From NCBI GenBank assembly GCA_963778505.1, contig CAVZUH010000002.1:472674-536673 (forward strand): a DNA stretch of 64,000 nt. Direction: 5' to 3'. The notes below the pieces were generated by a model that was not told where the DNA came from, did no database searches, and worked only from the letters and a program-made list of their open reading frames with translations. Position numbers and translations under genes: made by a program. Shown piece after piece: positions 4,204-43,440 of the stretch; the first letter of the stretch is position 1, and each line of letters starts with the position of its first letter. Source of the stretch: an uncultured Actinomycetota bacterium. GTDB lineage: Bacteria > Actinomycetota > UBA4738 > HRBIN12.

Positions 4204-4462
4204 CCTCGGATCCCTTCGCGAAAGGAAGGCCGGCAACGCGCCGACCGAAGAGCGGAAGTATACGGAAACATCCCAGGATGGAGGGGTTGACAACAGAAAG
4301 TGCGTCAAGACGCGCCGGTCGCTCGCGTTGGGGAAAAACCCCGGTGCTATAGTCCGCCCCGCACTTCCCCGGGGTGATGGGGCCCCCGGCGATCCTCCGA
4401 CCCCGACGACCTCCCCGGATGTGGGTTATCCACCGGTGTGGAAAGGTTCTGTGGAATCTCAG
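4204..4462. promoter_or_regulatory. rpmH-dnaA divergent intergenic region: candidate dnaA promoter and DnaA boxes
   Basis: A TATAGT at 4348-4353 preceded by TTGGGG-like and TTGACA (about 4286) elements. DnaA-box-like GTTATCCACC at 4425-4434 and inverted TGTGGAAAG at 4437-4445, just upstream of the dnaA start. Confidence 0.55.
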
Positions 4463-5888
4463 ATGGCAGTCGCATTGCCTGATCAGGAAGCGAGACGGAC
4501 CTGGTCGGCCGTGCTCGATCGCGCTCGGACCGAGCTCCCGGAGACCACGTTCCTGATGTGGTTCACCGACGTCCGCCCGATCGCACTCCGCGATCAGGTG
4601 CTCTCCCTCGCCGTCCCGAGTCAGTTCGTCCGAGAACGCCTGCAGCACAACCATCTTGGGCTCATCGAAGAGGCCGCCGAGGAGACGCTTCGGCCACCCG
4701 GTCAAGATCGAGATGGACGTGGACGAAGGCGATCCGCCACGAGGAGGGTCCGCTGGTCGACTGACCACCGCGCCTCCGGCCGCGTACGCGGCGATCGGCG
4801 CGCCGGCGACCGCCGCGCCGGTGCGGGCAAGGCCGCTCGGCGCACCCGGCCTCCCGTTCCCCAACTACACGTTCGACGCGTTCGTCCCCGGCCCGTCGAG
4901 CCGGTTCGCGCACGCCGCCGCGATGGCGGTGGCCGAGGCGCCGCTGTCGACCGCGTACAACCCGCTGTTCATCTACGGTGGCACGGGACTCGGCAAGACG
5001 CACCTTCTGCTCGCGATCGGGCATCACATCTGGCGATTGATGCCCGACACGCGGATCAAGTACGTGACCTCCGAGCAGTTCGTCACGGAGTTCATCAAGG
5101 CCGTCCGCGAACGACAGGGTGACGCCTTCCGCCACAAGTACCGCGAGGTCGACATCCTGCTCGTCGACGACATCCAGTTCCTCGCCAAGCGCGAAGAGAC
5201 GCAGACCGAGTTCTTCCACACGTTCAACCATCTCCACGGCGCCGGCCGCCAGATCGTGATCGCGTCGGACCGGCCGCCGCACGAGCTCTCGGGGCTCGAG
5301 GAACGACTGGTGAGTCGGTTCCGGTGGGGGCTCTGCGTGGACGTGCAGCCGCCGGACCTCGAGACGCGCATCGCGATCCTGCAGTTGAAGGCCGAGCGCG
5401 AGAACATCCCCGCGGTCGTGCCCGAGGTGATCGAGTTCGTCGCGTCCAAGTTCGACCAGTCGGTCCGCGAGCTCGAGGGCGCCCTGGTGCGCGTGGTCGC
5501 CTGGTCGGAGCTCACGCGCCAGCCGATCGACATCGAGCTCGCGGAGCGAGCCTTGCAGGACCTGATCCCGCAGACGGAGCACGAGATCCCGCCGCCGCTG
5601 ATCCTCGAGGAGACGGCGACGTACTTCCAGCTCTCGACCGGGGACCTGGTCTCGAAGTCGCGCTCGCGACCGCTCACGCAGGCGAGGCACATCGCGATGT
5701 ACCTGATGCGCGAGTGCACCGGCCTGTCCCTGGTCAAGATCGGCGAGATCTTCGGCGGTCGCGACCACACCACGGCCCTCCACGGCATCAAGAAGGTCGA
5801 GGACGAGATGCGCTCTCGCGACGACACGTTCCGTCAGGTCCAGGACCTCACGCGGATCATCCGCAGCCGTGTCCGAGGATTGGTGTGA
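4463..5888 (+). CDS. dnaA: Chromosomal replication initiator DnaA, with one frameshift (extra C near 4688)
   Basis: N-terminus MAVALPDQEARRTWSAVLDRARTELPETTFLMWFTDVRPIALRDQVLSLAVPSQFVRERL in the 3422.. frame. AAA+ and domain IV (GGTGLGKTHLL, LLVDDIQFL, ...HTTALHGIKKVE) in frame 4656..5888. Confidence 0.95.
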
Positions 5889-6112
5889 TGTCGGTGGACA
5901 ACTTCGCGGAGATGGCCGTTCTCGACCGACGCAGTGACCGGGCCCGGAAGAGCGCCAAGGACGTCCTCCACCGGTCCGTCCCACATGTCGGACATGCCCG
6001 CTACGCTGCGCGAACACCCCACTTCTCCACATTCTCCACCGCCCCTACTACTGCTCTCCACTCGAAAAGAACCTAAGAAGCAACAGCCTGGGAACAGGCC
6101 ACGACCGGGAGG
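5889..6112. other. Putative oriC core: a DnaA-box cluster in the dnaA-dnaN intergenic region
   Basis: Five or more boxes of the form T(T/C)NTCCAC(A/C/T): GTTGTCCACC (5889-5902, minus), CCTCCACC (5966), TTCTCCACA (6022), TTCTCCACC (6031), CTCTCCACT (6053). Only 224 bp long. Confidence 0.6.
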
Positions 6113-7225
6113 TTGAGGATGAAGTTCCGATGCGACCGCGACGACCTGTCCGAGGCGCTGCAGACCGTGCAGCGCGGCGTGTCCTCGCGCCCGGGGATCC
6201 CCGCGCTCACCGGCGTGCTGCTGGAGGCGGCGGACGACGGCACCCTGACGCTCACGACGACGGACCTCGAGGTCTCGGCACGGCTCTCGATCGCGCGTCC
6301 AGGTCCAGGAGGCCGGCACGGCACTGGTACCGGCGCGGCTGCTCGCCGACACCGTGAAGTCGCTGTCCGAGGCCCCCGTCGATTTCGAGACGGACCAGTC
6401 CCAGGCGCATATCCGCTGCGCTGCGTATGAGGGCGCGCTCCGGCTGCTGCCCGCCGACGACTTCCCGGGGCTGCAGGAGCCGTCGGGGACCGCGATCTCG
6501 GTCGAGCCCGCGCGCGTTCGCCGAGGCCGTCGGCGCAGGTCGTCCCGGGCGGCCTCGAAGGATGAGGCCAGGCCGGTCCTCACCGGTGTGTTGCTCGAGA
6601 TCAGCCGGGAAGGCGTGGTCCTGGTCGCCACGGACTCGTACCGCCTCGCCGTCCGCGACCTCGTCGCGACGGCGGACGGCGAGGCGAAGGCGATCGTCCC
6701 GGAGCGCGCGTTGACCGAGGCCGGCCGCGCGGCGGTCGACCAGAAGGCCGGGGTGGAGGCGTTCGGTCAACGCGTCGCAGATCGCGTTCCGGGTCGGCTC
6801 GCTGACCCTGACGTCTCGCCTGATCGAAGGCGAGTTCCCCAACTACCGGCAGCTCCTGCCGGAGACCTGTCGAGAGCCGGCTCACGATCTCGCGCCAGCA
6901 GCTCCTCGAGGCCGTCCGCCGGGTGGGGCTGCTCGCGCGCGACACGACGCCCGTGCGGTTGGAGTTCAACGCGCTCGGCGTGAAGCTGTCGTCGTCCAGC
7001 CCGGATCTCGGGCAAGCCGTCGAGACGGTCGAGGCCCGGTACGAGGGCGAGGACCTCGTCGCGGCGTTCAACCCGCAGTACCTCGTCGACGGGCTGACCG
7101 CGGCCACCGGCGAGAGCGTGCGGATCGACGTCCGCGACGGGCTCAAGCCCGGCGTGATCCGCGGCGAGGGTGACGAGCTCACCTACCTGGTGATGCCGGT
7201 CCGGCTCCCCGCCGCGGTCGGCTGA
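6113..7225 (+). CDS. dnaN: DNA polymerase III beta sliding clamp, with four or more frameshifts
   Basis: MKFRCDRDDLSEALQTVQRGVSSRPGIPALTGVLLEA.., ...RPVLTGVLLEISREGVVLVATDSYRLAV.., ..LTSRLIEGEFPNYRQLLP.., ..PVRLEFNALGVKLSSSSPDLGQAVETVEARYEGEDL...YLVMPVRL, spread over ORFs 6113, 6354, 6427 and 6923. Confidence 0.92.
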
Positions 7226-13297: not shown

Positions 13298-14234
13298 ATG
13301 AACATCGGACTCGGCTTCCTTGTCGAGGTCGTCGCGTTCGTGGCGGCCGCCTACGTCGTGGTGGCGCTGCGGCATCGCCTCACGCAGTTGACGACCGACC
13401 TCGTGCTCGCTTCGATCGGCTGCGTGATGGGAGCGGGCGCCCTGCTGTTCCAGCAGGACGTCAGTCTCGCCGGCGGCGTGCTCGCACCGCCGTTCGCGGC
13501 GTTCCTCTTGGTGGCGCACGTGCGCGCGTGGGATGCGGTCGGCGTGACCCTGCCCCGGTGGGTGAACATCCCCCCGCTCGGCCGTAGGCAGGCGTACGCT
13601 AGCGGCCCAGCCGAGTCCGGAACGATCGAGGAACCCATGCAGCGACCGACGATCCACGACGCAGCCCGAGCCGGCAGTCGCGGGTTCGACCCCGAGCCTG
13701 CGGGCGGGTTCGACCCCGAGCCCCTGCCCGGCGAGGAGGAGCTCGCGCCGCCGGTCGAGCCGCTCCCGCCCGAGCACGCCTGGCCGTCTACGATCATCAG
13801 GGCCCCCGCCCAGACGCGCCTCCCGCGGAGCGGGGTGCGCCGTACCCGCGTGGAGGTCAGGAGGGTCGGGCCGCTGTCGGTCCTGAAGTTCTCGCTGATC
13901 TTCTACTTCTGCGTGTTCCTGGTGATCTACCTGGCCGCTCGCGATCATCTGGGCGATCTTGTCCGCGAGCGGAGTGATCGACTCGCTGGAGGAGCTCCTC
14001 GGCACGATCTTCCCGTCCGGCGAGCGGCCTCGTCGCCGACGAAACAGATCAGCACCGGTCGCCGCGCCGCCGATCGAGATCGACACCGGGCAGGTCTTCA
14101 CGTGGCTGTTCTTCGCCGGATGCGTCGGAGTCGCGATCTGGTCGCTCATCAACGTGTTCGTGGCGGTGATGTACAACCTGATCAGCGACATCGTCGGCGG
14201 GGTGGAGGTCACGCTCGCCGACCGTCGTGACTGA
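13298..14234 (+). CDS. DUF3566-family transmembrane protein (Rv0007 equivalent), with one frameshift near 13950
   Basis: VRRVGPLSVLKFSLIFYFCVFLVIYLA.. and ..GQVFTWLFFAGCVGVAIWSLINVFVAVMYNLISDIVGGVEVTL. Contains a direct repeat GFDPEPAGGFDPEPLPG. Conserved position after gyrA. Confidence 0.8.
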
Positions 14235-38687: not shown

Positions 38688-40499
38688 ATGACACCGCGCT
38701 GGGAACGTCGCTTCCGCGCGCCCATGATCACGTACCCGGACTGGTCGCCGGCTGCGCCTCAGCGGCTCGCCTACGAGTCGACGGAGAGCGGCGTGTGGCA
38801 GCTGCACGTCGTGGATCTGGACGGCGGGGTCCGTCGGCGCGTCACCGATCATCCGGTCGGCGTGATCTCGGGCGCCTGGTCGCCGGACGGTGCCGAGATC
38901 TGCTGGTGGCAGGACGAGACCGGCGACGAGTCCGGGCGCTGGTACGCGCAGCCTTTCGAGGGTGGCGGATCACGGCTCCTCTTCCCTGAGCTCGATCCGG
39001 GATGGAACGAGGGCATCGCCTGGGTTCCCGGGATGCTCGCGGTCTCGATCAGCCGTCATGACGGGTTCGCGGTCTACGTGAGCGAGGACGGCGGAGCCAC
39101 CGTGAAGGAGGCCGCTCGGAGCACCGAGCACATGCGCGTCGCCGGGCGGCACGGCGGCTACAACCGCGGGGGCCTCTCGGCGGACGGAACGCTGCTCTGC
39201 CTGCAGCACGCCGAGCACGGTGACGAGATGCACGAGGCGCTTCGTGTGATCGATCCGCGGACGGGGGCGACGGTCGCCGACCTGGTCGATCAAGGAAAAC
39301 AGATCGCGTCCTCCGCGTGGTCCCCGATCGTCGGCGACCGTCGCCTGGCCGTCGTGCACGAGCGGGATGGGATCCCGCATCCTGCTCTCTGGGACCCCGT
39401 GACGGGCGAGTGGACAGACATCTCCACCGGGCTCGAGGGAGAGGTCTCGGTCGCGGACTGGTGGCCGGATGCGAGCGCGTTGCTCCTCTCGCAGCTCCAC
39501 GACGGCCGGCAGCGTCTCCACCGCTTCGACCTCGCGAGCGATGGCGCGGACCGCGATCGAGCATCCCGAGGGCCAGGTGGAGTGGGCACAGGTGCGGCCG
39601 GACGGCGCCGTCTGGTACCGGCACGCGAGCGGCGCGTCTCCGCAGCGGATCCTCGACGACTCCGGCAGGGAAGTGCTGCCGCTCGAGGGCGAGCCGGCGC
39701 CGCCAGGCCGCCCGTACCGGTCGTTCCGGTTCGACAACCGGCACGGCCACTCGGTGCAGGGGTTCATCGTGACCCCGGAGGGCGAGGGGCCGTGGCCGAT
39801 CCTGGTCCGTCCCCACGGAGGCCCCACGTGGCTCGATGAGGACCGCTGGAGCCCCGAGGTGCAGTCCTACGTGGACGCCGGGCTCGCGGTGGCTGCCGTC
39901 AACTACCGCGGATCGACGGGGCGCGGCGCCGTGTGGCGGGACGCGTTGATCGGCGACGTCGGCGGTCCGGAGCTCGAGGACCTCAACGACGCGCTGGACC
40001 ATCTGATCGAGGAGGGGATCGCTGATCCCGGCCGCGCCGTCGTGGGCGGATGGTCCTGGGGCGGCTATCTGACGTTGATGATGCTGGGCAAGCATCCCGA
40101 GCGGGGTTGGCGATGCGGGATCGCCGGGATCCCGGTCGGGGACTACGAGCTCTCCTACGAAGACATGTCGCCGTTGCTCCAGGCGTACGACCGGGCCCTG
40201 CTCGGCGGCCGGCCGGACGAGGTCCCCGAGCTGATGGCCGAACGCAACCCGATCAACTCTGCCGACCGCGTCGAGGCGCCGGTGCTGTTCCTGATCGGCG
40301 AACACGACTCGCGATGCCCGCTACCGGCAGGCGATGGCGTACGTGGACCGGCTCGCGGCGAGGGGACATCCGCACGAGGTCTATCTCTTCTCGACGGGCC
40401 ACGGGTCCCACGACGTCGATGAGGAGATCCGCCAGCAGCGGGTGATCCTCGATTTCCTGGTCCGAGCACGTTCCCGGGGTGACCGTCCCCGAAGACTGA
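38688..40499 (+). CDS. S9-family serine peptidase (prolyl-oligopeptidase / acylaminoacyl-peptidase-like: beta-propeller plus alpha/beta-hydrolase), with three or more frameshifts
   Basis: N-terminal propeller ..WSPDGAEICWWQDETGDESGRWYAQP... Hydrolase domain ..AVNYRGSTGRG..AVVGGWSWGGYLTLMM (GxSxG nucleophile) ..LFLIGEHDSRCP... C-terminus restored in an alternative frame (..ILDFLVRHVPGVTVPED, stop 40497-40499). Confidence 0.8.
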
Positions 40500-40508
40500 G
40501 TCGTTATC

Positions 40509-40793
40509 GTGGGTCCATGCCCATGTGGATCGTCGTCCTCACCGGCGCTGCTCGCGGCGTTCGTGATCTGGCGCGTCGGGATCGCGATGCTGCGTTCCCT
40601 CACGCTGACGACCCCGCCGTCCGACTCCGACGAGCCGGCGCCGGCAGAGCCCGAGGATGTCGACGATCTGGACGTCTACCTGGTCTGCGACGAGTGCGGC
40701 ACCGAGCTCAAGGTCTCGCGGCTCGGGGAGCTCCAGATCCCACGGCACTGCGGCGAGAAGATGCAGGTCGTGCGGCGTCCCGAGCTCGCGTGA
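40509..40793 (+). CDS. Small membrane-anchored zinc-ribbon protein (hypothetical), with one frameshift
   Basis: MPMWIVVLTGA / LLAAFVIWRVGIAMLRSL (TM helix), then an acidic linker and VYLVCDECGTELKVSRLGELQIPRHCGEKMQVVRRPELA (CxxC...HCG). Confidence 0.45.
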   Translation: MGPCPCGSSSSPALLAAFVIWRVGIAMLRSLTLTTPPSDSDEPAPAEPEDVDDLDVYLVCDECGTELKVSRLGELQIPRHCGEKMQVVRRPELA

Positions 40794-40794
40794 G

Positions 40795-40960
40795 AGGGGG
40801 TCTTCCACCGATTCCCACAGGCTTCCCCCTTCGTTTCCACGAGGTTTTCCACAACCGCGTGAAGGAAGCGTGAAGATCGCACTGCAGGGGAAGGCATTTC
40901 TCCACGATGTGGAAACCGGATGTGGAAGATGACACGGCTGTGATTCGTGCCTCCGGGAGT
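40795..40960. promoter_or_regulatory. Cluster of six DnaA-box-like motifs in a convergent (non-promoter) intergenic region beside crgA
   Basis: TCTTCCACC (40803), ATTCCCACA (40816), GTTTCCACG (40838), TTTTCCACA (40850), an inverted pair TCTCCACGATGTGGAAA (40900-40916) and TGTGGAAG (40921). These match the T(T/C)NTCCAC(A/C) boxes seen at oriC and upstream of dnaA in this window. Confidence 0.5.
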
Positions 40961-40961
40961 C

Positions 40962-41204
40962 CTACTTCCAGAAGGTGAGGCCGACGAATCCCACGCCGAT
41001 GATGCCGAGGCCGACCCAGAGCACGCCGTTGGTTGCGAGGTCCCCGCGGAGGTAGTTCGCGACGACCACCACGACACCGAGGCCGATCACGCCGAGGACC
41101 AGCGGCCCGTACCAGCGAGGGCTGTGCTTCTTGCGCTTCTTGCGCTGTGGCTCGACCTGGTAGCGCTGGCTGGCCCGCTTCTTGCGGGAGCGGGACTCCG
41201 GCAT
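40962..41204 (-). CDS. crgA: Cell-division membrane protein CrgA
   Basis: MPESRSRKKRASQRYQVEPQRKKRKKHSPRWYGPLVLGVIGLGVVVVVANYLRGDLATNGVLWVGLGIIGVGFVGLTFWK (80 aa, two TM helices). Compare Mtb CrgA, which starts MPKSKVRKK. Confidence 0.85.
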   Translation of the reverse strand: MPESRSRKKRASQRYQVEPQRKKRKKHSPRWYGPLVLGVIGLGVVVVVANYLRGDLATNGVLWVGLGIIGVGFVGLTFWK

Positions 41205-41230
41205 GGGGCAGATGGTACCCGCGTCGCGGG

Positions 41231-43440
41231 TCAGCCGGGCGCGATCGTGAGGTGCTTCGTGGCGGCGGCCTCGACCGCGGCGCGGGTGAAGGGAAGCGGG
41301 CGAAGCTCCCCGGCTGCCCACGCATCGCTCTGATCGTTCCAGTGCGGTGAGGCCGGGTTGCCCGACTGCCCCGTCGGGAGGATGCCTCTGCTTTCGTCGA
41401 GGTCGGCGAGGTCGTACACCACCCGCCACGAAGGAACGACGTAGACGTCGAAGGGGCCGTCGCCCTCGAAGCCGGCGTTGCTCACGGTCTGCTCGTCGCC
41501 GCCGAGCGGCAGCTCGGCGGCGACGAACAAGGGCTCGAGTCCCGGCATGCGGCCGAGCGGATGGGCGAACCGCGCTCGATGGATGTCACCCCACCGCCAC
41601 TCCGCGGGATCCGGCCCCATCGCCTCGATGCACCGGTCCCAGGCGGCGGCGAGCGCGTCGTCGAGCAGTTCCTTCGAGAGAACGCCGGCGCCGAGGAGCG
41701 CGGGGAGGGCCCGGCATCGGAACAGCTCGCGATCGGTCAGATACTCAGACGACCAGAGGCTCCTTGCCGTTCGACGGCTCGGCGCGCCAGCTCGTCGACG
41801 AAGACCTCCCACAGGGCAGCCGCCGCCGATCCGGCGGTGACGTCGTGGTCCCATCCCTCCAGGAGCTCTCCACCGGGCTCGTCGCCGAAGGAGGGGAGGT
41901 GGGCGAGCAGCTCGCGCGCAGAGAGGGAGACCGTGTCGGATTGGATCGCCCGACACGTGTCCACCGTGTGATCGCTCCGGGTCTCGAGCAGCTCGGTGAT
42001 CCGCGCGGCGCGATCCGGCGCGTGGAAGTCGTGGCCGATCAGGTGCGGGTAGTCCTCGTCGTGGATCCGGTCGTTCGCGGTCACCAGGTATCCCCGCTCG
42101 GGATCGACGGCGTACGGCAGCTCCTCGAACGGCACGAACCCGTCCCACTCGTGGTCGGCGGTCCAGCCGGGGACGGGGACGGTGCCGTCCCCGGCGCCGC
42201 CGGATCGGATGGAGCCCGGTGCACTGGTACCCGATCGTGCCGTCGACGTCGGCGTAGACGAGGTTCTGGCCCGGACACTCGAGCGCCCGAGCGGCGCTAC
42301 GGAACTCCTCGAAGCTCCTGACGTTCGCGACGTCGATCAGCGCAGAGGGACGGATGCTGTGCTCGGCGCCGACCCAGCGGAGCGCGTAGGAGCCGTCGAG
42401 GGGGCGTTTCGCGGGGCGAAGTCGCCCGGTCAGATACGAGTCGAGGAGCGGGTCCGTGCCGGGTCTCGCGGACCTCGTGCACGATCGGCTCGTCGCTGCC
42501 ACGGATCCGGATCTCCTCGCGGTGCACGGTGAGCGGTTCCCATGAGTCCTCGTAGCGCACCGCCGTGCCGTCGTCGTTCAGGCGCTCGAGGTAGAGGTCC
42601 TGGACGTCGCCGCTGACGTTGGTCGTCGCCCCACGCGTGGTGAGCGGTCGTGCCGAGGACGATGCCGGGAGCGAACGGTGCGGCGACGCCGCGCGCCTCG
42701 TAGCCGGGCGCGCGCAGGTGGAGCTCGATCCAGGCGCCCGGCTGCTGGACGAGCAGGTGCGGGTCGTTCGCGAGGAGGGGCTTGCCGGAGGCGGTCCGCG
42801 CGCCGGCGATCGCCCATTCGTTCGAACCCTGACCCCGCGGCGGGCGGGGGAGCGTCTCGCAGCAGATCGCCCGCGAGGCGGCCGGCCGCCGGCGCTGTGG
42901 GATGACCGCTGAGCGGGGGGAGGAGGCGGCCGGCCGCCTCCTCACCGAGCTCCGCGGCGAGGTGCACGCGGAGCAGCTCGAGGTCCCAGTTCCCCGAGAG
43001 GCCCCACGAGAACATCGCCCAGCACGCGGCCCACGAGGCGTCGTCGTCGGGGAGATCGGGCGAGGCGTCGAGCAGCACGTACTCGACGGGCGGGGCGGGC
43101 ATCGCGCCGATCCACGCGAGGATCCCTTCGCGGAATCGCGCGATCATCGGCGCGTGACGTGTCGTCCCATCCAGCGGCGATCGCGGCGCCGGCGCGGTTG
43201 ATGCCGATCGTGCGCGTGAAGCGATCGTCGTCGAGGGTGAGCTCGCCGAAGAGCTCGGACAGTCGGCCGTTCGCCTGCTTCAAGCGCGAGGTCGATCTGG
43301 AAGAGGCGCTCGCCGGCGGTCACGAACCCCTGCGCGAACCACAGGTCGTCGAGCGAGCCGGCCGAGATGTAGGCGACGCCCGTACCGGTCGCGGAGGACC
43401 TCGACGGGCGCGCCGAGACCGGGCCGCGTGAGCTCACCGT
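41231..43440 (-). CDS. Penicillin-amidase-family (S45, Ntn-hydrolase) acylase, with five or more frameshifts
   Basis: Alpha-subunit ..VAYISAGSLDDLWFAQGFVTAGERLFQIDLA... Beta-subunit N-terminal nucleophile region ..GSNEWAIAGARTASGKPLLANDPHL... C-terminal ..RWGDIHRARFAHPLGRMPGL..LPTGQSGNPASPHWNDQSDAWAAGEL... Confidence 0.8.

Follow-up and report, generated by a model that had tools for sequence, protein, structure and literature searches.

The Escherichia coli locus datA is an early-replicating cluster of DnaA boxes outside the origin and is considered to reduce the initiation potential; it needs an IHF site between its boxes and stimulates the hydrolysis of DnaA-bound ATP. For Streptomyces, a 2006 study by Smulczyk-Krawczyszyn reportedly names three clusters, H69, H24 and D78. 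The core of DARS consists of three DnaA boxes, of which boxes I and II are opposed and lie 5 bp apart (PMC6868365). Here we compare with such loci a DnaA-box cluster adjacent to the cell-division gene crgA in a 64-kb stretch of DNA from an uncultured Actinomycetota bacterium (64,000 nucleotides, hereafter the window). The initial annotation of the window had likened this cluster to datA- or DARS-type loci and had described these as essentially uncharacterised in actinobacteria. The latter statement was too strong, as the orthologous site of Mycobacterium tuberculosis was mapped and mutated in 2020 (PMC7738170), and D78 of S. coelicolor is cited, together with oriC-proximal DnaA-box clusters of Bacillus subtilis, as a negative regulator of initiation (PMC3479198).

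The M. tuberculosis site lies between Rv0010c and Rv0011c, the latter being crgA. Hicks et al. mapped DnaA binding across the M. tuberculosis genome by in vitro DNA affinity purification with sequencing (IDAP-seq), and Rv0010c-Rv0011c, termed a 'cryptic DnaA interaction site', was one of the five top sites and, by the supplementary table, more enriched than the oriC bin (PMC7738170). An electrophoretic mobility shift assay confirmed binding to the fragment, for which purified DnaA alone suffices, and chromatin immunoprecipitation with sequencing in M. smegmatis recovered homologues of the same five regions, the homologous site Msmeg_0025-0026 being a peak. Clinical strains are recurrently mutated in 'a small palindromic region' of this site, which the authors read as two DnaA-box-like sequences; the convergent single nucleotide polymorphisms (SNPs) fall at positions 13629-31 and 13636-38, and 22 independent IS6110 insertions were found at 13625 (PMC7738170). 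Three reconstructed palindrome SNPs led to longer cells and higher isoniazid tolerance, as dnaA mutations do. Hicks et al. proposed titration or nucleotide exchange and left the mechanism open (PMC7738170); these are the same two readings that the initial annotation had offered for the window cluster.

The window cluster occupies a 168-bp spacer (40794-40961) between the 3′ ends of two convergent genes, crgA (40962-41204, minus strand; Pfam PF06781, 4.5e-14) and a gene for a 94-aa small membrane protein with a zinc-ribbon-like C-terminus (40509-40793, plus strand; weak Pfam match below the cut-off). Both genes and all the box motifs previously listed lie where the initial annotation had placed them. 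Besides two TTCAC-type repeats, the spacer contains seven good DnaA boxes and a degenerate one. On the crgA strand, starting at the crgA stop and moving away from it, the order is palindrome, box a, box b, inverted box c, a spacer of ~20 bp, the two TTCAC repeats and five boxes of opposite orientation. The palindrome, AATCACA-gccg-TGTCAT on the crgA strand (40929-40945, minus strand), occurs nowhere else in the window. Box a (TCTTCCACA, 40921-29, minus strand) abuts its right arm, box b (GTTTCCACA, 40908-16, minus strand) is a weight-matrix match, and box c (TTCTCCACG, 40898-906, plus strand) is inverted relative to box b at a distance of 1 bp; on the crgA strand, boxes b and c together read CCACATCGTGG and box c alone CGTGGAGAA (40906-898). 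All three hold positions that are conserved in relatives.

On the far side of the spacer, the two direct repeats, (C/T)CTTCACGC on the minus strand (40857-40876), have an 11-bp period and read GCGTGAAG on the plus strand at 40857-64 and 40868-75. The five same-direction boxes (40801-40853, plus strand) are TCTTCCACC (40801-09), ATTCCCACA (40811-19), the degenerate GCTTCCCCC (40821-29), GTTTCCACG (40833-41) and TTTTCCACA (40845-53); their starts (40801, 40811, 40821, 40833 and 40845) are spaced by 10, 10, 12 and 12 bp, and the array faces the core and the TTCAC repeats. The degenerate box, the two repeats and the palindrome (at 40929-44) had been missed in the initial annotation.

Like Rv0010c-Rv0011c, the window cluster lies directly downstream of crgA and close to oriC, at a distance of ~34.7 kb. 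The window palindrome AATCACAgccgTGTCAT (40929-45, minus strand) differs by one arm base from the mycobacterial AATCACA-N4-TGTGAT(T). In both, TCC(A/C)CA-type boxes are followed by an inverted TGTGGA(T/G)AA box, corresponding to boxes a, b and c of the window at 40898-40929. The oligonucleotides of Hicks et al. give the sequence of the site as tcAATCACAcgcaTGTGATTCATCCCCActgTTGATAGCGtcTGTGGATAA (PMC7738170), which is nearly identical to the core in two named mycobacterial assemblies described below. The two groups of convergent clinical SNPs correspond to the inner TGT and ACA of the palindrome, and these are the invariant columns in our alignment of 55 distinct palindromes. Because crgA position, palindrome and boxes are shared and the mutated bases are the invariant columns, the window spacer is, judged from its sequence, homologous in position and sequence to a DnaA site verified by experiment. 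DnaA binding and the phenotypes are mycobacterial results. The two loci also differ. The next gene in the window is convergent, so the window site cannot be a 5′ untranslated region (UTR), and the window has about five extra phased boxes and two TTCAC repeats in comparison with mycobacteria.

The density of boxes was evaluated with a weight matrix trained solely on the boxes of oriC (the dnaA-dnaN spacer) and of the dnaA upstream region, and thus independent of the crgA site. Six matches per 170 bp were reached at three clusters only in the 64 kb, namely the crgA site, oriC (5891) and the dnaA upstream region, and the next best window of that size had three. With an expectation of 0.21 matches per window (lambda), the probability is ~1e-7 per window and ~4e-5 after correction for the number of windows. 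The spacer was also the densest 170-bp window for T[TC]CAC, with eight matches, which exceeds the density at oriC. TTCCAC gave a similar picture, as five of its 29 copies in the 64-kb window fall inside 125 bp of the spacer. The stricter pattern of the initial annotation was found 16 times against 5.1 expected, the matches being concentrated at the same three places. These results bear out the earlier claim of a genuine DnaA-box cluster. A second dense T[TC]CAC window at ~31.47 kb lies within coding sequence, has weak matches only and was dismissed as incidental.

oriC (5889-6118, plus strand) has six to seven boxes; the tandem TTCTCCACATTCTCCACC is followed by GCCCC, TACTACTGC and the most AT-rich 25-mer of the region. 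At 6023-6090, the two abutting boxes TTCTCCACATTCTCCACC are followed by a GC-rich pentamer, TAC-TAC-TGC repeats, a further box and that 25-mer, a layout that we take to resemble a basal unwinding module. Just before the dnaA start at 4463, the boxes ATGTGGGTT, TTATCCACC, TGTGGAAAG and TGTGGAATC (4421-4458) match the rpmH-dnaA DnaA site reported for M. tuberculosis (PMC7738170).

An exact look-up of the window CrgA returned no recorded identical sequence, and its relatives were metagenomic only. A genome scan yielded 52 loci from metagenome-assembled genomes (MAGs) of uncultured Actinomycetota, with CrgA identities of 42-96%, and crgA and the convergent zinc-ribbon gene were retained together in 52 of 52. 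In an alignment of the 17 closest relatives, the spacer was more conserved than the adjacent gene ends, which answers the conservation check suggested in the initial annotation. Across the 52 loci, the crgA-adjacent part was fixed in position, consisting of the palindrome, TCCACA, 4-5 nt, T(T/G/A)TCCACA, 1-3 nt and TGTGGA(C/T/A)AAC, and this core was kept in spacers of just 49-87 bp (L044, L037, L024 and L046). The distal array was variable, with three to six GTGGA(C/T/A)AAC boxes at differing spacing, and a variable spacer of 20-60 bp separates it from the core in relatives. In more distant clades the sequence of these boxes is GTGGA(C/T)AAC, which corresponds to the canonical TT(G/A)TCCACA on the opposite strand.

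The TTCAC direct repeats were invariant in, and confined to, the window's own subclade. They may be TTCAC-type DnaA boxes or a response-regulator-type (OmpR-family) direct-repeat site. A TTCACA-type box, CCGTTCACA, is known in M. tuberculosis oriC, as stated by the title of a paper that PMC6265350 cites. The motif of MtrA, a direct repeat of 9 nt spaced by 2 nt (PMC6265350), is matched imperfectly by the TTCAC repeats. Variants of the TCCCCA/TGGGGA type (for example TTGTCCCCA, CATCCCCA and TGGGGAAAA; in the window GCTTCCCCC at 40821-29) occurred at equivalent positions across lineages, in many loci at box b. Their recurrence suggests a tolerated low-affinity box variant rather than decay.

The comparison beyond the window clade drew on the 52 MAG loci, two named mycobacterial assemblies and 80 loci from a metagenome scan. 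Approximate CrgA sequences of S. coelicolor and M. tuberculosis served as search seeds only, and the identities of the retrieved loci to them, given below, show that they were sufficiently close; the labels 'Streptomyces-like' and 'low-GC actinobacterial' denote CrgA identity and GC content, not taxonomy. A search with a mixed CrgA profile (window clade, Streptomyces and M. tuberculosis) gave the window clade alone among the best 120 matches listed. With a two-sequence CrgA profile, the matches listed were mycobacteria only, and the Streptomyces-like loci came from the metagenome scan.

In M. heckeshornense and Mycolicibacterium sp. CBM1 (L053 and L054; 83-85% tblastn identity to the M. tuberculosis seed), AATCACAcgaaTGTGATTCATCCCCAttgTTGATAGCGCtTGTGGATAAC lies ~75 bp after the crgA stop and upstream of a co-directional bPH_6 gene, the homologue of Rv0010c. 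Contigs with a CrgA 77-94% identical to that of S. coelicolor have TTATCCACA, (T)TCCACA, TGGGG/GTGGAAAA and TGTGGATAAC after crgA, and a convergent rhomboid-like gene comes next. In low-GC contigs (44-51% GC), crgA is followed by AATTACA-N4-TGTAATT, C, TCCACA, 3 nt and TTATCCAC, and then by a co-directional gene, for example a response regulator. Overall, a palindrome and then a box were found after crgA in 97 of 135 loci.

We then consider box density over these loci. The mean number of T[CT]CAC in the 150 nt after crgA was 1.5-6.5 by group, compared with 0.55-0.87 per 150 nt elsewhere in the same loci (n = 128 loci of adequate sequence length; Wilcoxon p = 9e-23, a descriptive value since the loci are phylogenetically non-independent). 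A cluster after crgA was present in most of the 128 loci, and the mycobacterial loci had only one or two T[CT]CAC in this interval. The element was always at the crgA 3′ end, which anchors it in every lineage examined, and it sometimes overlapped the stop codon. The neighbour of the window is conserved in the window clade only; depending on the lineage, crgA is followed by a convergent gene of the zinc-ribbon or the rhomboid-like kind, by a co-directional bPH_6 gene or by a response-regulator gene. This variation indicates that the element travels with the crgA 3′ end and not with a promoter. Literature searches found no published account of the broad conservation, of the two-part architecture or of the coincidence of clinical mutations with invariant bases. 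The kind of element is already described in mycobacteria; as far as these searches show, its conservation across groups is new.

Several of the collected loci had further features near the element. In the Streptomyces-like contigs L055-L080, the box cluster is succeeded, ~100-200 nt after crgA, by a long inverted repeat rich in GC (cgccccctgcctgacctg...caggtcag.gacagggggc), and a further GTGGACAAC box comes after it. This repeat is probably a bidirectional terminator, and its separate presence indicates that the box cluster is not itself the terminator in these loci. In L117, a tandem repeat of ~33 bp (aaagcttgcgatcagcgcctgattagatggcg...) fills 1-160 nt between the crgA stop and the palindrome, and the element is displaced 163 nt downstream yet intact. 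In L058, L069, L087 and L093, the convergent neighbour has an N-terminal zinc-ribbon motif, CYRHPDRETGIRCTRCERPICPEC, and appears, from its translation, to be a rhomboid-family membrane protein.

The palindrome has a fixed 7+4+7 geometry, always with a 4-nt spacer whose sequence is free. In the alignment of 55 distinct palindromes, the inner ACA..TGT was invariant or nearly so, and arm position 4 changed symmetrically, being C-G in 22 distinct versions and T-A in 23. Such features would be expected of a hairpin as much as of a protein site with symmetric halves. The right arm shares 2 nt with box a. It reads TGTCAT (G to C) in the window, L001 and L022, and TGTGAT in the near-universal form elsewhere; because the change is common to the window's two closest relatives, it is not a sequencing error. 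Clinical mutations of M. tuberculosis are concentrated in this arm. NrdR, LexA and CRP boxes do not appear to fit the palindrome in sequence or arm order. The antitoxin HigA2 of M. tuberculosis binds ATCAC-N4-7-GTGAT in vitro at micromolar concentrations, the Rv0010c-Rv0011c palindrome included, and its deletion alters Rv0010c expression (PMC11205783). HigA2 was nevertheless rejected as the general ligand of the palindrome, because a lineage-specific antitoxin cannot explain conservation across groups.

We consider that the window spacer is the orthologue of the mycobacterial Rv0010c-Rv0011c site, that is, a non-origin, oriC-proximal DnaA-box locus on the crgA 3′ end that would hold DnaA and modulate its availability or activity, and we assign this reading a probability of about 0.62. 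DnaA, through its domain IV, would occupy the position-invariant core, in which the palindrome is joined by two forward boxes and an inverted one. Starting from the core, or independently of it, DnaA would fill the same-direction phased array with its 10-12 bp period. In the former case it would nucleate on the core and oligomerise head-to-tail along the array, so that ~8-10 protomers may be held. Because the locus lies ~35 kb from oriC, it would be copied shortly after initiation and so would alter, once per cycle, how much DnaA is free or active, which could help to couple initiation to growth and division. For the window, we infer DnaA binding at the spacer, the array acting as a sink, and an effect on the nucleotide state of DnaA; the direction of the effect could be either negative, as with datA or D78, or positive, as with DARS.

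Several observations weigh against this reading. The boxes in the window are T-rich variants (TTTCCAC and TTCCCAC) and not the perfect consensus, and the window palindrome carries the TGTCAT mismatch. The half-sites of the palindrome match a DnaA box in CACA only, and the ATTACA of the low-GC lineages loses the CAC core. Streptomyces-like loci keep the boxes and lack the palindrome. The element is lost in L045, which has a 0-bp spacer, and is missing also from L112, L125 and L126. Finally, the rate of replication initiation in the M. tuberculosis mutants was reported to be unchanged (PMC7738170), a poor fit to simple titration.

The poor match of the half-sites to a DnaA box makes a partner protein possible, and a protein other than DnaA may bind the palindrome. 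In its stronger form, which overlaps with the orthologue reading, the key ligand would be another dimeric protein conserved in actinobacteria that recognises AAT(C/T)ACA-N4-TGT(G/A)ATT, and the DnaA boxes would be its partners within one composite site. Such an arrangement would resemble that of IHF or Fis at datA and DARS2. The fixed geometry with its free loop, invariant ACA..TGT and symmetric arm changes would suit such a protein, as would the 2-nt overlap with box a, the poor half-sites (ATTACA especially) and the fact that the clinical M. tuberculosis mutations hit the palindrome and not a canonical box. We regard it as unlikely, since no candidate protein was identified, HigA2 being lineage-specific and a micromolar binder, and the palindrome is absent from Streptomyces-like loci; moreover, Hicks et al. 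see two DnaA-box-like sequences in it and purified DnaA alone binds the fragment (PMC7738170). A comparably low likelihood applies to a local role, in which DnaA acts as a transcription factor or roadblock on crgA 3′-end formation or read-through, on an antisense transcript or on the neighbouring gene, and so links replication status to division. The constant place of the element at the crgA 3′ end, at times over the stop codon, its position upstream of a co-directional gene in mycobacteria and low-GC lineages, and the altered Rv0010c expression on deletion of HigA2, which binds the same palindrome in vitro (PMC11205783), would all be compatible with local control. On the other hand, expression of Rv0010c and Rv0011c (crgA) was unchanged in dnaA mutants (PMC7738170), and the downstream gene varies by lineage; both the window clade and the Streptomyces-like loci have it in convergent orientation. 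A scan of 40300-41500, for consensus types only, showed neither a sigma-70-like promoter nor an intrinsic terminator; with the convergence of the flanking genes, this agrees with the earlier statement that the region is not a promoter.

A structured RNA or terminator hairpin in the crgA 3′ UTR is improbable. The palindrome can form a hairpin of 6-7 bp, with compensatory-type changes in its arms and, in some variants, G-U-type pairs on the crgA-sense strand, but A-C-type mismatches were about as frequent as G-U-type ones. The covariation term of RNAalifold was positive, hence unfavourable, on both strands (+0.44 and +0.46), and the predicted helices were the opposed DnaA boxes, which never vary. 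Stems of 6-7 AU-rich pairs did not exceed shuffled sequence in stability (z between -0.5 and -1.4), and the minimum-energy fold of the window sequence ignores the stem, which has a C.C mismatch in the arm. The consensus scan found no terminator-like site. The Rfam 15 scan gave two tRNAs only at the gathering threshold and noise at E<10, with no match for the spacer. Least probable of all is a second or relic replication origin, which the initial annotation had raised as an alternative and which a box density equal to or above that of oriC and two arrays facing each other might suggest. The spacer has no AT-rich unwinding element, its lowest-GC 25-mer being 44% GC and made of boxes; oriC, by contrast, has a 40%-GC 25-mer beside tandem boxes, a GC-rich spacer and TAC-TAC-TGC repeats, and this tandem-box/trio module, present at 6023-6090, is absent at 40.8 kb. 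The cumulative G-C curve, also proposed earlier as a check, has its minimum at 6466 and rises monotonically through 40.8 kb without an inflection there. In addition, even spacers of 49-87 bp retain the core. The initial annotation is therefore partly supported, its main interpretation being right in kind and its origin alternative wrong.

Like datA, the window locus is a cluster of boxes outside oriC, here 7-10 of them, and, at 34.7 kb from oriC, is early replicated; unlike datA, it shows no sequence homology to it, and neither an IHF-type site nor an ATP-hydrolysis activity can be inferred for it. Speculatively, the variable 20-60 bp between core and array could hold a site for a DNA-bending protein. 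The conserved core of three boxes, two of them opposed, recalls that of E. coli DARS1 and DARS2, although here 1-3 bp rather than 5 bp separate the opposed boxes, a palindrome and a long array are added, and there is no sequence homology. As D78 and the B. subtilis clusters do, it lies near oriC and outside the origin. By analogy with datA, D78 and the B. subtilis clusters, the array resembles a sink, whereas M. tuberculosis site mutants that phenocopy dnaA variants or reduced DnaA function would fit a positive, DARS-like element.

Other features of the window were noted in passing. The dnaA gene (4463-5888) appears frameshifted, with its N-terminus in one frame from 4463 and the remainder in another from ~4656. 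The genes for an S9 peptidase and a penicillin amidase are each broken into two open reading frames (38688-40422 and 41231-43147). Because many of the relatives are long-read MAGs, indels introduced in assembly are a more probable cause of these apparent frameshifts than pseudogene formation. At 1728-1743, upstream of oriC, there is a perfect parS-type palindrome, TGTTTCACGTGAAACA, in a block of minus-strand open reading frames that we take to be the usual parAB/rsmG region. GTTTCCACG was considered as a parS site and rejected, the true parS being the palindrome at 1728-1743.

For the window itself, the result is that a regulatory DNA element overlooked by gene callers is now correctly annotated. 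The same core follows crgA in uncultured soil Actinomycetota, in mycobacteria, in contigs with a Streptomyces-like CrgA and in low-GC metagenomic contigs. This recurrence in several groups, the invariance of the bases mutated in M. tuberculosis and the irrelevance of the neighbouring gene speak for an effect on DnaA or the cell cycle and not on a local gene. Somewhat more tentatively than the orthology, and at less than even odds, we propose that it is an ancient DnaA-control locus of several actinobacterial groups, an analogue of datA or DARS, in which the invariant ACA-N4-TGT and three-box core would assemble into a specific nucleoprotein complex, perhaps together with a palindrome-binding partner, and lineage-specific arrays would tune the capture of DnaA. 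Natural variants with the core only, with core and array, or with boxes and no palindrome are at hand for experiments. The M. tuberculosis site is clinically relevant, as recurrent mutations there raise isoniazid tolerance; if the proposal is true, these mutations would be lesions in a conserved cell-cycle switch.

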